Below are positions 3,105-46,739 of a DNA stretch of 64,000 nt, piece by piece. How positions within the stretch are numbered: position 1 is the first letter of the stretch; every line of letters begins with the position of its first letter. The position numbers and the translations under genes were made by a program. The notes under the pieces are model-generated. The model worked only from the letters and a program-made list of their open reading frames with translations. It searched no databases and was not told the DNA's origin. The stretch comes from a virus (lineage: Duplodnaviria > Caudoviricetes), in IMG/VR virus record IMGVR_UViG_3300005200_000008, positions 1-64,000 of that record, one strand, 5' to 3'.

Positions 3105-4667
3105 TTACAAATACCCCTTCGGTATTCTCAGGTCAGGCTCCGGTATTTGGTTATCCTGACGCTTCTCTGAAATAGGCGTGCTTAAATCAGAAACTGCCCC
3201 GGTTTCTTCCAAGCGTTTTGCTTCCTCGTGGAATTGCATTTTTTGAAGCACAAGCAGTTGCGCTTCAAAGAGGGTTCTCTTTTTCAGGAATTCGTCTTTG
3301 TATTCCATGAATTCGGGATGCAGGCTGCTGACGGTATCCCTGAAAAACTTGACCACTTCCGGATTCGCGTTTTTGATTTTTTCCTGTTCGGCTTCAAACG
3401 CCCTGCGTTTTTCATCCAAAGTTTTCTGTTCGTTAAGTTTCCGCTGCCTGCGTTCTGACAGTTCCCTCGCGGTGTTTGCCTTTGTTTCCGCGTTTTTATT
3501 CTCTTGAAGTATCTTTTGAAGTTTTTCAGCCAGTTTTTTGTTGTAGCCTACGGCTTTCGCCAGCAATTTCTTCTGCTCCGCGTAACCGGCAAGCACTTTC
3601 TTTGTATATTTCTGCAAGGCAACGTAATCTTTGTAGGGAACGCTGTTCTGCCGATAGGAAGAAGCTTCGGTTAAAATCTTTTCCGTATTTTTTGAAAATT
3701 CGGAAGCCGAATCGAGGGTGTCGAGGGCTTCTTTAAGTTTGGCAGAAAGGTCGGCGTTTTCCTTGGTCAGCCGGGTAATTTCTTCCTGGTTTTCGGTAAG
3801 CGTGGCGGCGGTCACGTTTATTTTTTCATTCAGCGCCTCATACTGGGTGCCTTTCTCCATTTGCTCCTTGATGGCGGTATCGCAGGAAGCGACAATTTCC
3901 TCCAGACGGGGCTTTAACGTACCCAATTCGGATTCGTCGTACATTTCAAGGAGTTCTTTAGCCTTGCCGCGCCGCTCTTCGGGATTAGCAATACGGGAAA
4001 TTGATTCGCATACTTGCTGTAAAGTCGTTTCAACAATTTTTTTGATTTTGCGTTCGCTTAATTCCATCATTTTATTTTCCTTCCCTCCGGATTGTTCTTC
4101 TGTATGCTGAACAGCCTCGGTGACTTTATCATCAAGGCGGCCGAATACTTCGTAACTCGGTTCCATGACCCAATCGGCAACACGCTCAAGCTCGAATGAA
4201 TCAGGATCAACCGTGAAACCGTCGGATAAAAATTCGCCGAAGCCGGAGGAAGACAGCCCAATCTCGCCCCCCGCTTTCAGCACCCCTAAAGCCGTCCTTC
4301 CCCATTCGTTGTCAATGATGTAAAAGTCAGCTTCGACAAATTCTTTGCTTTCGTCGTAATTGACGTTTCTGGAAACCGCCCAAATGTTTTTCGGGTCTCC
4401 CGGGTCGTCTTCGGGCGGGTGGTTCATCAGCGCCAGCGTGGACTTGCCCCGCATACGCTCGATAACCAAATCCCAAAGTTTATAATCGTAAACCCTGCCG
4501 TTAAGGTTTTTTCTTCCCGGTCTGGTAAACTTGAACCTGTAAACGGCTAACGCTTCGTAGAGTTTTCCCTCATGCAAAACAGATTCTTTGAGGGAACCCT
4601 GCGTTTGGGATACTTTTTGATAAAACTGTGGGGATATGAGAACATTCTCAACCAGCCGTCGTTTCAT
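3105..4667 (-). CDS. Prohead protease (T4 gp21-like) fused to coiled-coil scaffold/core domain
   Basis: KNLNGRVY, LMNHPP, IGLSSSGFG, ADWVMEPS motifs in first ~175 aa; long K/E-rich coiled coil after. Confidence 0.85.
   Translation of the reverse strand: MKRRLVENVLISPQFYQKVSQTQGSLKESVLHEGKLYEALAVYRFKFTRPGRKNLNGRVYDYKLWDLVIERMRGKSTLALMNHPPEDDPGDPKNIWAVSRNVNYDESKEFVEADFYIIDNEWGRTALGVLKAGGEIGLSSSGFGEFLSDGFTVDPDSFELERVADWVMEPSYEVFGRLDDKVTEAVQHTEEQSGGKENKMMELSERKIKKIVETTLQQVCESISRIANPEERRGKAKELLEMYDESELGTLKPRLEEIVASCDTAIKEQMEKGTQYEALNEKINVTAATLTENQEEITRLTKENADLSAKLKEALDTLDSASEFSKNTEKILTEASSYRQNSVPYKDYVALQKYTKKVLAGYAEQKKLLAKAVGYNKKLAEKLQKILQENKNAETKANTARELSERRQRKLNEQKTLDEKRRAFEAEQEKIKNANPEVVKFFRDTVSSLHPEFMEYKDEFLKKRTLFEAQLLVLQKMQFHEEAKRLEETGAVSDLSTPISEKRQDNQIPEPDLRIPKGYL
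3170..3177 (-). promoter_or_regulatory. Putative late promoter for major capsid gene (inside protease 3' end)
   Basis: GCCTATTT about 110 nt upstream of 3064. Confidence 0.5.
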
Positions 4668-4671
4668 AACA

Positions 4672-4679
4672 AAATAGGC
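4672..4679 (-). promoter_or_regulatory. Putative late promoter element GCCTATTT
   Basis: GCCTATTT-tgtt-ATG(4667). Confidence 0.6.
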
Positions 4680-4701
4680 AAGAGGATTTAAAAATTACTT
4701 T

Positions 4702-6555
4702 TTATCTATCCCCTTCCTCCCTGAGCCTCTTTTCTTTTTGTTCTTTTTCCATACTCCAGAACATTTCTTTCAACGGCTTTGACTTAATGCCGGTTTCAAG
4801 GGCTAATTCCAATACCTGCTTCTGCATACGCATATCGTTCGTATTAATAAGGGAAGATCGGAAATGCTTGCCGTCTGCAACGCCTTCGGGGAAAAATTTG
4901 GAACTGGTTCTTATAATTTGCTCTCTAAATTGCTCCCTGACTTGGGGGGTATACCTGTTGGAAATCTTCTCGAACAGGCTGCCGTCAGTTTCGTCGTCTT
5001 CGGTTTCCTCCGGTTTTTCAGCTTCTGCGCGTTTCCGTTCCGCTTCAATGCCGTCTATCCACTTCACCAATCTTTCCTGCGGTATTGATGTCATAGTAGA
5101 AAATGCGTCTTTTATAATGTCAGAAGGTATATTTTCAACACCGATTAAGCTTTTCAGAGTATCTAGCGCCGAATTAGCCATATCGATTTCGTCTTTTCGT
5201 CTCTGCTGCCTTTCGGAGGTTTCTTCAATTACGGGGAATTCCATGATGAGTTCAAACGGCGTATCCCACCCTTGAAATTTATTCACGATGGTAAGGTGCA
5301 TTTTTATTTTAAGCGTAAGTTCTTTTATAAAATCAGACTGGTCGGCGTAAACGCCCCTGCCGAACGGTTTGAACTGCTGTAAAAGAGCTTGCCCGCTGTT
5401 GCCCCAACCGCCGGCATCGACAATAAGATACCCCTTCGGCACGCGGGTTGACATGATTTCGTTATCGCGCAGGTACTCTATGTCGGCGATTTTATCAAGG
5501 TCAATATCGCTTGATTTTTGATCAAATTCGGCAAGCTCCTTCGGCATAACCACTCTGGAACCGATAGAGGGCAGTTCTTTGCTGCCCCCAAAGAGGCCGG
5601 CGTTGTCAAGTTGCTCGACAAATTCCTCAACGGCTTCCCACTGCTCGGTCGGCGTCATGCCGGGCGAAGTCGCCACGCCGTAAAAATCGCGGGGAAACGA
5701 AGCAGCGCGGGCAACCTGCATGAGCGTCTGCGCCGCCATAAGTTGCTTGAATGTCGGCAGCGCGTTTATAAACCTGCTTCTCCCCCAGGGAGAGAATTCG
5801 CGCTGCATGGAAAAAGTCCTAAAATGGGTGATACTCCACGGCGGCACTACCACGCCGGAAGATAATTCAAACCCGAAAAGAAAAGTTTTAAAATATGAAA
5901 CGGGGTCTTCGGCGTTTTGGATAAGGTTCTGCATCAGCCGGTCAAGTTTCTGCCCCCGGGTGCCATGCTCATAACCGTTAGTGATATTATATTTTTCAAG
6001 GATTATCGAGGGGTTGAATTCCAGCCGGTCTCGAATATCCCAAACGGTAAGCGGGGTTACGCTTACAATGCCCTCTTTTTCGTCAATCTCGTTGCCGTCA
6101 AAAGCGTCGCCGTATACAACTTTGTTGTAAATGATTTCCCTGACGTTCTGTTGGGTATAACCCCACTGTTCAAGAAGGCTTTCAATGTAATTTTGAATTT
6201 CAGACTTCGCGTTTACCCGTATCGGCTGACCGCTATACTCGCACTGCACCGCCTCGTCAGCGTACAAATCAGCCGCCATTTGGATTACGGTGTCGTTTTT
6301 AATCATTAAATCAAGGTCAAGATAACGAAGCTCCCGATTTTTGAGGGTATCGCTGGTATCGATGGTTTCTCTAAGATACCAACTCCACAACTTTTGCAGG
6401 GTAGTATATTCGCCCTTCGTATCCCTTCCAATTCTGCTTTTACGTTCTTTACCGGCTTCGGGGGGAATGGGCTGCATACGGCCGTAGGAATTAACCCCGA
6501 CGTTATGCAAGTTCAGTAATTTAGATAAGAAGTTCTGATTGCTTTTATCAGCCAT
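4702..6555 (-). CDS. Portal protein, T4 gp20-like
   Basis: 617 aa; RYLDLDLM...IQMAADLYADEA, ITHFR, PWGRSRF, RVPKGYL motifs; portal-protease-MCP order. Confidence 0.85.
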   Translation of the reverse strand: MADKSNQNFLSKLLNLHNVGVNSYGRMQPIPPEAGKERKSRIGRDTKGEYTTLQKLWSWYLRETIDTSDTLKNRELRYLDLDLMIKNDTVIQMAADLYADEAVQCEYSGQPIRVNAKSEIQNYIESLLEQWGYTQQNVREIIYNKVVYGDAFDGNEIDEKEGIVSVTPLTVWDIRDRLEFNPSIILEKYNITNGYEHGTRGQKLDRLMQNLIQNAEDPVSYFKTFLFGFELSSGVVVPPWSITHFRTFSMQREFSPWGRSRFINALPTFKQLMAAQTLMQVARAASFPRDFYGVATSPGMTPTEQWEAVEEFVEQLDNAGLFGGSKELPSIGSRVVMPKELAEFDQKSSDIDLDKIADIEYLRDNEIMSTRVPKGYLIVDAGGWGNSGQALLQQFKPFGRGVYADQSDFIKELTLKIKMHLTIVNKFQGWDTPFELIMEFPVIEETSERQQRRKDEIDMANSALDTLKSLIGVENIPSDIIKDAFSTMTSIPQERLVKWIDGIEAERKRAEAEKPEETEDDETDGSLFEKISNRYTPQVREQFREQIIRTSSKFFPEGVADGKHFRSSLINTNDMRMQKQVLELALETGIKSKPLKEMFWSMEKEQKEKRLREEGDR

Positions 6556-6832: not shown

Positions 6833-7110
6833 ATTATTTGTGTTGGTTTATAATGCGAGCATTTATAATCAAAGCCGTCACAAGGAAATGGTCGGGCAAT
6901 TTCATTACAGTTACTATGTCCTAAATAATTAATACATAAAAATAAATTACCTAAAGACTTAAAACCATCATTTTTTTCGTATGTTTTATTCTGTACATTT
7001 TGTACATATTGTACATATCCTATAAGATTTTTTGCTGTTTTGGGATCACATTCTATTCTAACATCAAGAAAATTGTTATTATATTCCATACGTTTAATTA
7101 CTGGCTTCAT
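6829..7110 (-). CDS. Hypothetical protein
   Basis: 93 aa, Cys-rich C-terminus, 4-nt overlap with neighbour. Confidence 0.55.
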   Translation of the reverse strand: MKPVIKRMEYNNNFLDVRIECDPKTAKNLIGYVQYVQNVQNKTYEKNDGFKSLGNLFLCINYLGHSNCNEIARPFPCDGFDYKCSHYKPTQII

Positions 7111-24295: not shown

Positions 24296-24322
24296 ACTTC
24301 CGATCTATTATCGTAAGAGCTT
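24296..24322 (-). promoter_or_regulatory. Bipartite phage promoter AAGCT-N15-CGGAAGT (leaderless helicase mRNA)
   Basis: CGGAAGTCCTATAT-ATG(24288). Confidence 0.7.
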
Positions 24323-39266: not shown

Positions 39267-39293
39267 ACTTCCGGCTTTTACTTGTGAAAGCTC
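39267..39293 (-). promoter_or_regulatory. Bipartite phage promoter GAGCT-N15-CGGAAGT (leaderless J-domain mRNA)
   Basis: CGGAAGTCCTATAT-ATG(39259). Confidence 0.7.
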
Positions 39294-39955: not shown

Positions 39956-40028
39956 TTACCCCAAGTGGATTTGAACCACTAACCCGCAGATCCAAAATCT
40001 GCTGCTCTACCGATTGAGCTACAGGGTA
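39956..40028 (-). tRNA. trnQ-UUG: tRNA-Gln (UUG), CCA not encoded
   Basis: TACCCTG/TGGGGTA acceptor (U1-A72), GCTC/GAGC D stem, GCAGA-TTTTGGA-TCTGC, AGTGG-TTCAAAT-CCACT. Confidence 0.92.
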
Positions 40029-44052: not shown

Positions 44053-44220
44053 TTACTTTTTCGTTTCACCCGACCAACATCCCATACCGTTAAATTTTTT
44101 TACTTGCCAACCGCAGGAACATTTATCTTTAGCCGTACCGTTCCCGCCTCGGTCACATTCAGAACAGGCAGTCCATTTCATACCGTTTTTATCCGTGTAA
44201 CTATGTTTTTTTCCGCTCAT
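44053..44220 (-). CDS. Hypothetical 55-aa Cys-rich protein (not in ORF track)
   Basis: MSGKKHSYTDKNGMKWTACSECDRGG...; CCGGAAGTTATT 4 nt upstream. Confidence 0.55.
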   Translation of the reverse strand: MSGKKHSYTDKNGMKWTACSECDRGGNGTAKDKCSCGWQVKKFNGMGCWSGETKK

Positions 44221-44221
44221 A

Positions 44222-44572
44222 CTAAATAACTTCCGGTCTGCGGTTGGCGATATCGAATGTATTCGCGTTTTTTACCAGTTCTTTGAGATATTGCGGATAT
44301 TTTTTCTTTGTCAGTTTGTGATTAACAAGCCATAACTCAAACGCCGCGTAATGGAGGTATCGCCGGGCATCTTTTATCGCTTCAAATGACAGGTTCTCCA
44401 GGGCGAACGCATAGCGTTCTTTGGCGGCGATTACGTCACGGAACCTTCGTTTGCAGTTTCTTTGGTTTGTCTGGTCTTTGGCAAAGGAAGATGAAACCTC
44501 CGTTTTCCCGGAGAGGTCTCTCATTAAAGAATCTATTTCGTCTTGGGATAATTGCTCTGCAAAAGCCGCCAT
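44222..44572 (-). CDS. Hypothetical protein with N-terminal FliM-type LSQDEIDSL motif
   Basis: MAAFAEQLSQDEIDSLMRDL. Confidence 0.65.
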   Translation of the reverse strand: MAAFAEQLSQDEIDSLMRDLSGKTEVSSSFAKDQTNQRNCKRRFRDVIAAKERYAFALENLSFEAIKDARRYLHYAAFELWLVNHKLTKKKYPQYLKELVKNANTFDIANRRPEVI

Positions 44573-44573
44573 A

Positions 44574-44601
44574 ATAAAAAAGGCGGGATTTTACCCGCCT
44601 T
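44574..44601 (-). terminator. Intrinsic terminator
   Basis: AAGGCGGG/CCCGCCTT stem plus T-tract. Confidence 0.7.
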
Positions 44602-44649
44602 CGTTACGGGCCGCCAGACTCCGCTATCCAGCGGCCGCCGGCTAAATCA

Positions 44650-44976
44650 TCACATAATAAATATCGTCATTTTTTGTTCCGACGCTTTAGAGCAGCCCGA
44701 AACGGGCATCACCTCCTGCGTCGAAAAAACGCCAACGGTATTCGGGGTAGCGATAACACAACTGCCGCCTATAATCGCGTCGGGCAGCGTATATTCGCTT
44801 AAAACGGTATAAATTATAATTCCCTCATAATTGACAACCGCTTCACGGCTGGCAATATCCGCAAAAACGGCGCCGGTTTCAAAAAGACCCGGGCCGTTGT
44901 TATGAACCGGCAGCGCGAAAGCGAAAACGGCTCCCATTACCAATCCCATCAAAAGCAGAATCAGCAATTTCTTCAT
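44650..44976 (-). CDS. Exported hypothetical protein
   Basis: Signal peptide MKKLLILLLMGLVMGAVFA; GGAGGT RBS. Confidence 0.6.
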   Translation of the reverse strand: MKKLLILLLMGLVMGAVFAFALPVHNNGPGLFETGAVFADIASREAVVNYEGIIIYTVLSEYTLPDAIIGGSCVIATPNTVGVFSTQEVMPVSGCSKASEQKMTIFIM

Positions 44977-45046
44977 GCAGACCTCCATCTGTTTAAGATA
45001 CATAAATAGGCATATTTGTTTTCGCCCTGTGTATAAGGACTTTCAG

Positions 45047-45403: not shown

Positions 45404-45454
45404 TGCGCCCTCCAATTTGCTTTATACAAAGGACTTCCGCTCGGAGGAACTCGT

Positions 45455-46144: not shown

Positions 46145-46739
46145 GAACTGTAAAAAAATCTATGCTTCGCGCCGCCGCCCTTTCCTAAATTTTAATTATT
46201 AAATTTAAAGACAGATCTAAAATAAATTTATTTTAAAACAGAAGCTATAATTTATTTTTTTAATCTATACTATGAGGAAACGGTGAAGTGTACACACCTA
46301 GCCCATAGGATGAACCGTTTTTTCGACGTTCATCGCTCTGAGCAGGCGTGCCAGAGGTTCCATGAGTCTAACGGAGCCGTGCGACACTGGTTACCCGTTG
46401 TGCGGGATTTACTTGCTTTGGCGATTGAGCAGACCCAACGCTTTCATCCCTCGCCCACTTTGGCCGGTAACCATCCAAACCTTTGCCAAGACCATCCCAA
46501 GCAGGGTATCCCGGTGTGGTCTTTTAAGCCGAACTGCACCCACGGGGGCTAGACCTTCGATGCAGAACGCGGGATTTCTCCCGTTATCCCTGAGAAATGG
46601 GATAAACTTATACTAATGATTTCCGGGTGAATCAGACTCGTGATAGATATTTGGGAAAAAATTTTTATTTTTTTTCTGTGTTAGCTGCAATTCTACCAAC
46701 CTTCCTAAAAAGTTTCACGGGAAACCGGAAGTTATTAGT

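Follow-up and report, generated by a model that had tools for sequence, protein, structure and literature searches.

The window analysed here comprises the first 64 kb of the 89,930-bp viral record IMGVR_UViG_3300005200_000008 and carries, on its minus strand, an open reading frame at 44222..44572 that appears in the ORF listing as a protein of 116 amino acids. The frame opens at the earliest possible start codon after the upstream stop, and its product begins with MAAFAEQLSQDEIDSLM (also given as MAAFAEQLSQDEIDSLMRDL). A FliM-like N-terminus had been reported on this frame by the first-pass annotation, and it is seen there exactly as claimed. The core of the likeness is the FliM-type motif LSQDEIDSLM at residues 8-17 (44522..44551, minus strand), delimited by column conservation and proposed to be a docking helix for phosphorylated CheY (CheY-P). 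The motif is part of an extended segment, residues 4-27 (44492..44563, minus strand), which hhalign aligned with FliM residues 1-24. Residues 24-40 (44453..44503, minus strand) form a hypervariable segment of variable length that, judging by its entropy, indels and pLDDT, is probably a flexible tether, and residues 41-110 (44243..44452, minus strand) form a conserved helical domain that was delimited from the AF2 model and column conservation.

The window also contains genes for a UvsX-like recombinase, a helicase, a primase, a clamp loader, SbcCD and a portal-like protein, and the neighbours of the small open reading frame code for an N6/N4 DNA methylase, a CxxCxxCC protein, a hexapeptide transferase and a DUF4942 protein. 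CheckV puts the record at about 42% completeness, which, for a record of this length, means that the phage is large. A tblastn search against 50,697 isolate phage genomes gave no match to the 116-aa protein, and the phage helicase finds matches among the isolate phages at 25% identity or less only. The phage also encodes a tRNA-Gln (anticodon TTG) at window positions 39956-40028 on the minus strand.

About 20 kb past the window end, at record positions 84151-86700, lies a full-length fliM gene (341 aa) with fliN next to it, as well as a 430-aa open reading frame with a FliG_C domain. This means that the phage, by encoding FliM, FliN and FliG, carries other genes for the flagellar switch of its host. 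The phage FliM starts with MTEVLSQDEIDQLL and scores 363.9 bits against TIGR01397, which is above the cut-off. Because it shares 62-71% identity with the FliM found in many MAGs of termite-gut Treponema as well as in Breznakiella homolactica, the host is very probably a termite-gut treponeme. The spirochaete host suspected in the first-pass annotation is thereby supported from the phage's own genome.

The start of the small gene directly adjoins a terminator-like structure. In the junction region (44566-44612), the terminator scan located a G+C-rich hairpin followed by a U-run (...CCCGCCUUUUUUAUUAUG; 44579..44602, minus strand), with the hairpin ending 9 nt and the U-run 3 nt before the ATG of 44222-44572. 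The hairpin has a folding energy of -23.2 kcal/mol (z -3.4), and together with the U-run it looks like the intrinsic terminator of the upstream gene. The ATG is without a Shine-Dalgarno sequence, while AGGAG-type sites are found at most other phage genes. With such a hairpin directly before its start, expression of the gene must depend either on read-through of upstream transcripts or on some unusual kind of start. The same junction is seen in a syntenic relative (L004, positions 7030-7080), in which a GGCGGG-loop-CCCGCC hairpin and UUUUUUAUU are followed by the motif-proximal ATG, as in the window. The loop differs between the two syntenic phages, and the junction of hairpin, U-run and ATG is conserved.

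A family of small phage proteins with a FliM-type N-terminus

Beyond its N-terminus the protein had been described as unrecognisable, and the database searches agree with this description. Neither Pfam nor PHROG gave a family at E<=10, and a PDB sequence search with the 116-aa protein gave no credible match. The single NCBIfam match at E<=10 was TIGR01397 (FliM), in which profile positions 2-20 cover residues 7-25 with 11.3 bits (cut-off 219.6) and an E-value of 0.1. A score of this size is weak alone and can occasionally arise by chance across many windows, so it was for relatives of the protein to supply the deciding evidence. The protein was rejected as a FliM in its own right. A member of that family would match TIGR01397 or the Pfam families FliM and FliMN_C, score above the family cut-off, have about 330-350 aa and begin with the CheY-P binding peptide LSQxEIDxLL. 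The peptide is there, as LSQDEIDSLM at residues 8-17, but the middle domain and the C-terminal FliN-like (SpoA) domain are absent, the TIGR01397 score falls far below the cut-off, and only 24 columns are aligned by hhalign.

A word-indexed homologue search returned nothing beyond the query protein. An exhaustive HMMER search of 1.84 billion representatives, on the other hand, gave 28 homologues of 80-127 aa (E 2e-16 to 6e-4), and a profile search gave 16 further homologues, bringing the family to about 45 small proteins on phage-like metagenomic contigs. The relatives in other phages that the first-pass annotation had suggested looking for are thus available for comparison, and every flank inspected is phage-like. 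For example, one member (L135) is flanked by a diversity-generating (DGR) reverse transcriptase beside an mtd-type target protein (3428-6448), along with a CHAP domain and NUDIX. Further flanks hold Phage_Gp15 and Gp13-like proteins, a VapE-like primase, or a CI-type repressor, YopX and Thy1, and the order in L004 is hexapeptide transferase, a 124-aa open reading frame, the homologue, then CxxCxxCC and DUF4942. Flagellar genes were found in none of the flanks of other members, which extend up to 10 kb per side. Since synteny varies between the contigs and their G+C ranges from 30% to 46%, the gene acts like a mobile accessory gene present in several lineages of phages.

The motif is kept by these homologues, a point on which the original proposal depended. 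The pattern [LM][ST]Q[DAE][ED]IDx[LI] occurs in 43 of the 45 members, and in 44 if Val is allowed for Ile. Over the 45 members, Q10 and D14 are each 98% conserved, I13 96%, E12 87% and L16 80%. Mean column entropy is 1.11 bits in the motif versus 3.28 bits in the following 17 residues, and indels are seen in columns 25-28 of the family alignment. No other segment of the family is as well conserved; in the fold, only R53, W81 and F78 match the conservation of the motif. In 40 of the 45 members the motif starts at residue 4-9, and three longer N-termini look like mis-called starts. This position, together with the hairpin, U-run and ATG junction shared with the syntenic relative, also settles an earlier reservation, namely that the true start might lie downstream of the motif. 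The features of a CheY-P docking motif on a tether (conservation, a terminal position and an adjacent variable linker) are all found. Because the Q, I and D residues are 96-98% conserved, the position is N-terminal and a hypervariable stretch lies behind it, the peptide is best understood as a functional linear motif on a tether.

The likeness is also specific to the N-termini of FliM and its relative FliY. When the family was compared by hhalign with 16 treponeme and phage FliM sequences, family columns 3-26 fell on FliM residues 1-24 with a probability of 94.85% and an E-value of 4.8e-8. The shared pattern over these 24 residues reads ..E.LTQDEIDxL..xI..GE in the family and MTEVLSQDEIDQLLTAI..G. 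in FliM, and the likeness extends past the motif core into the continuation ..L[LM]xxIxxG[ED]. A six-frame scan of the 89.9-kb record gave just two instances of the motif, one belonging to the phage FliM and the other to the open reading frame 44222-44572, and 30 shuffles of the record produced it 0 times. Taken together, the conservation in 43 of 45 members, the shuffles and the hhalign E-value mean that the motif in this protein is not a chance occurrence.

In the genomes of the treponemes themselves, the family HMM points to the same place. It matched one place in 278 of the 401 Treponematales genomes, through model positions 2-39 only and almost always within an open reading frame of about 345-355 aa. 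At the 10 loci that were read, the match was the FliM N-terminus in all 10 cases, and in 4 of them FliY just downstream starts alike. As a positive control, the phage's own genome returned a full-length match (E 5e-36) as well as the N-terminus of the phage FliM. No full-length family member was found in the 401 Treponematales genomes or in 401 genomes sampled across Spirochaetota (about 800 in all). Family positions 2-20 can also be aligned with the crystallised FliM peptide of Thermotoga maritima (4iga_B), but 12.4 bits and E 1.4 fall short of significance for a 20-mer.

The corresponding cellular peptide is well described, and both PMC6700473 and PMC5677366 give the FliM consensus LSQxEIDxLL as the motif for binding CheY-P. 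The FliM N-terminal sequence LSQXEIDALL is the CheY-P binding sequence and is disordered until bound (PMC6700473). When the conserved Ile-Asp pair was replaced in the FliM of Caulobacter crescentus, reversals were abolished (PMC5677366), and it is this pair that is nearly invariant in the phage family. The N-termini of FliM (peptides in PDB 1F4V for Escherichia coli and 4IGA for T. maritima) and of FliY share with the phage protein the motif itself, its extreme N-terminal position, its continuation and the variable tether. The FliY N-terminus of spirochaetes and Bacillus is the equivalent of that of FliM, and in treponemes both FliM and FliY start with the motif. Unlike FliM, which has about 345 aa, the protein in the window has 116 aa, is borne by a phage and is unrelated in its remainder. 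Judged by its sequence, it could be described as a cellular docking peptide borne on a phage scaffold.

Some other explanations of the likeness and of the names in the databases were considered and set aside. A recent copy of the 5' end of the phage's own fliM was rejected, as the DNA of the motif region is identical at 35 of 66 bases only. The top PDB match to the family profile, the calmodulin-binding helix of the plant Ca-ATPase ACA8 (4aqr_D, E 0.009, 19.5 bits), was judged to be compositional or due to chance, both being basic amphipathic helices. In IMG, one cluster of the family (P0012/P0030/P0031) carries the name "flagellar motor switch protein FliM", wrongly assigned on account of the peptide, and another member (P0041) is named "ADP-heptose:LPS heptosyltransferase", likewise a misannotation; the misnamed proteins have 110-114 aa.

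The helical domain and the receivers of the host

AF2 modelling with the family alignment gave a mean pLDDT of 86, rising to 94-99 over residues 41-100. The motif lies in a helix of residues 10-21 (pLDDT about 80), which is separated by a short break from helices at residues 27-60, 63-84 and 92-110; for residues 21-30 the pLDDT is 63. The residues that stand out in the helical domain over the 45 members are R53 (100%), W81 (96%), F78 (93%) and H74 (89%). The domain is real and conserved, and its fold resembles nothing specific in the structure searches. With Foldseek, no PDB match fell below E 0.18, the ESM Atlas had none at 0.9 or above, and VIA-align gave generic helical hairpins only (F-BAR, Rop and membrane-fusion proteins) at Z<=9.3, compared to a mark of about 13 for helical bundles.

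A candidate target in the host is the orthologue of CheY3. Of the CheY proteins of Borrelia burgdorferi, CheY3 alone takes part in motility; its phosphorylated form interacts with the switch proteins, and cells run when CheY-P is low and flex when it is high (PMC5318424). A stand-alone regulator of 145 aa in B. homolactica is the CheY3 orthologue, with B. burgdorferi CheY3 (3hzh) as its best PDB match at E 2e-48. It is 70-96% identical in 49 of the 61 sampled Treponematales genomes (match at E<=1e-30), and its C-terminal third is almost invariant across the sampled genomes. When the complex of host-type CheY3 (residues 20-145) with family residues 1-40 was predicted, as runs without controls, the ipSAE values were 0.29 and 0.28 against a mark of 0.32, which speaks in neither direction on binding.

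In termite treponemes, among them B. homolactica, the cheA-cheW-cheX operon is without the cheY gene that comes after cheX in Borrelia, and the two B. homolactica loci (4065500-4073500 and 4038500-4043000) place the CheY3 orthologue about 27 kb from cheA-cheW-cheX. Termite treponemes also have several extra CheY-CheX pairs beside membrane and GGDEF-type proteins.

Proposed action on chemotaxis and its rivals

The reading that we favour, with guarded confidence, is that the phage protein docks CheY-P and acts as a decoy or sponge that uncouples the motor from chemotaxis. The layout would be that of an N-terminal FliM/FliY-type docking peptide, a variable tether and a small conserved helical domain. 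During infection of a treponeme, the phage protein would capture CheY-P of the CheY3 type by the surface with which CheY meets the motor switch, and it would thus be in competition with the FliM and FliY of the C-ring. The helical domain could add avidity by oligomerising, by making a second contact or by anchoring the complex elsewhere. The outcome would resemble that of low CheY-P, with continuous runs and few flexes or reversals. We infer the binding of CheY-P, the competition at the switch and the effect on behaviour alike from sequence comparison.

Of course, a pure decoy would not need a highly conserved folded domain, and the conserved helical domain suggests that the protein is more than a passive peptide. 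A single FliM N-terminal peptide binds CheY-P weakly, at tens of micromolar in E. coli, so an effective sponge would need either high expression or avidity. The lack of a Shine-Dalgarno sequence and the terminator-like hairpin just before the start codon may affect both how and how strongly the gene is expressed. Those two features would also fit an open reading frame that is unexpressed or is an annotation artefact. We regard this as highly improbable, since the roughly 45 homologues at 24-45% identity indicate conservation at the protein level, the frame is tightly packed with its downstream neighbour on the same strand, and the syntenic relative has the same hairpin-ATG junction.

The conserved domain could instead have a task of its own. 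In such an adaptor or enzyme, the peptide would dock CheY-P, and the helical domain would deliver it to a partner (the phage FliM, FliN or FliG, CheX, or the cell pole) or would speed its dephosphorylation. The domain is confidently folded and as conserved as the motif in R53, W81, F78 and H74, the phage encodes switch proteins of its own, and the layout of peptide, tether and domain matches that of CheZ and FliY, in which a short CheY-P docking peptide is joined by a flexible tether to a folded domain, helical in the case of CheZ. Against this, no CheC/CheX/FliY or CheZ match was found in Pfam or NCBIfam, the family consensus has no conserved D-x3-Q or E-x2-N pair, the structure searches gave only generic helical hairpins, and no flagellar gene accompanies the other members in their flanks (up to 10 kb per side). 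Such a role is rather unlikely. In CheZ, moreover, which is a long four-helix-bundle dimer with a catalytic D-x3-Q, the peptide is C-terminal and of the CheZ type, while that of the phage protein is N-terminal and of the FliM type; with no Pfam match, no conserved D-x3-Q and generic hairpins only, the comparison gives no positive sign of a CheZ, a distant likeness to which could escape structure searches. A phosphatase of the FliY/CheC/CheX kind was rejected, as no Pfam or NCBIfam match to CheC or CheX appeared at E<=10, the D/S-x3-E-x2-N-x22-P signature is absent from the consensus and the model is all-helical.

It is also conceivable, though less probable than an adaptor, that the receiver domain to which the peptide docks is not the motor CheY but, for example, one of those in the extra CheY-CheX pairs or in other response regulators, in which case the pathway affected would not be flagellar switching. 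One termite treponeme genome has 66 receiver-domain matches as well as several stand-alone CheY-like genes beside CheX paralogues, and receiver domains commonly interact through their alpha4-beta5-alpha5 face. On the other side stand the likeness over 24 residues that is specific to the N-termini of FliM and FliY and, in B. burgdorferi, the position of CheY3 as the sole CheY with a motility role, whose phosphorylated form meets the switch proteins (PMC5318424). About equally improbable is that the N-terminal helix is part of a four-helix bundle, in a structural or self-associating role, or binds a partner that is not a receiver, with its likeness to FliM being convergent or an ancient relic that has no present link to CheY. 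The motif helix is modelled at a pLDDT of about 80 with only a short break before the next helix, and the hydrophobic residues L8, I13, L16, M17 and L20 can be read directly from the sequence as lining a single side of an amphipathic helix. A packing helix, however, need not keep the polar residues Q10, E12 and D14, which are among the best conserved; the segment behind the motif is hypervariable in both sequence and length; and FliM N-termini are the sole match of the family HMM in 278 genomes. The motif helix might also fold back onto the helical domain of the same protein, either for structural reasons or as an autoinhibited form.

A CheY-P sponge would have few parallels among known phage proteins. 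PIT4 of Pseudomonas phage LSL4 (PMC10714779) is likewise a small early phage protein that disturbs host two-component signalling and motility, but it binds histidine kinases, is no docking-peptide mimic, is not aimed at CheY or the flagellar switch, and has no visible sequence relation to the protein described here. The phage-encoded TldR (PMC13418256) likewise remodels the flagellar system of the host, but as an RNA-guided transcriptional repressor of flagellin, so that it acts on gene expression and not on the chemotaxis signal at the protein level. The first-pass annotation had known of no described phage example, and a full-text literature search found no report of a virus that targets the CheY-motor interface and no phage mimic of a CheY-docking peptide.

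Going one step further, we consider it possible, though doubtful, that phages of motile spirochaetes, and perhaps of other flagellated bacteria, carry dedicated CheY-P sponges that mimic the FliM peptide, and that the one here acts with the phage FliM, FliN and FliG to take over both signal and switch and so reprogram swimming. If this is true, the infected cell might be kept running, might be moved away from or towards other hosts, or might be closed to flagellum-dependent superinfection. Binding of CheY-P by this family would also give a functional reason for the presence of fliM, fliN and fliG on the same phage, and it would mean that phages can steer the swimming of their hosts at the level of the signal, beyond flagellar gene expression or receptors. 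Chemotaxis signalling is among the best-understood bacterial pathways, and short-linear-motif mimicry is well known in eukaryotic viruses; if CheY-P is bound, the protein would be a clear case of such mimicry by a bacterial virus. One could then also consider it as a small, portable and genetically encoded CheY-P trap for work on spirochaete motility, where tools are scarce.

Recurrent sequence elements

Two short elements recur upstream of genes of this phage. The heptamer CGGAAGT is present in 40 copies in the record (16 + 24), compared to about 8.7 expected. Examples in the window lie at 24296-24302, 39267-39273, 45433-45439 and 46726-46732, and a further copy at 44229..44235 (minus strand) falls in the last codons of the small open reading frame, directly upstream of the next gene (44053-44220). 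The element often stands 5-20 nt upstream of starts, as CGGAAGTCCTWT or CCGGAAGTTATTnAGT-ATG, and frequently the gene is without a Shine-Dalgarno sequence. We take it to be a probable phage promoter or, alternatively, a start signal of leaderless mRNAs. The second element, GCCTATT(T/A), lies 3-8 nt before the ATG of genes of the portal region and of a few others, and it is found upstream of 421-1176, 3105-4667, 4702-6555 and 44650-45003, all on the minus strand; possibly it marks late genes.

The C-terminus of the family also has a recurrent feature. In the columns after residue 96, the majority of members have a conserved basic tail, MNRE(A/L)KKRG..PPF, as their C-terminus, and this tail may be a second short motif of the family. 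The 116-aa protein of the window is without it and ends instead in ...NANTFDIANRRPEVI, where its coding sequence overlaps the CGGAAGT element.
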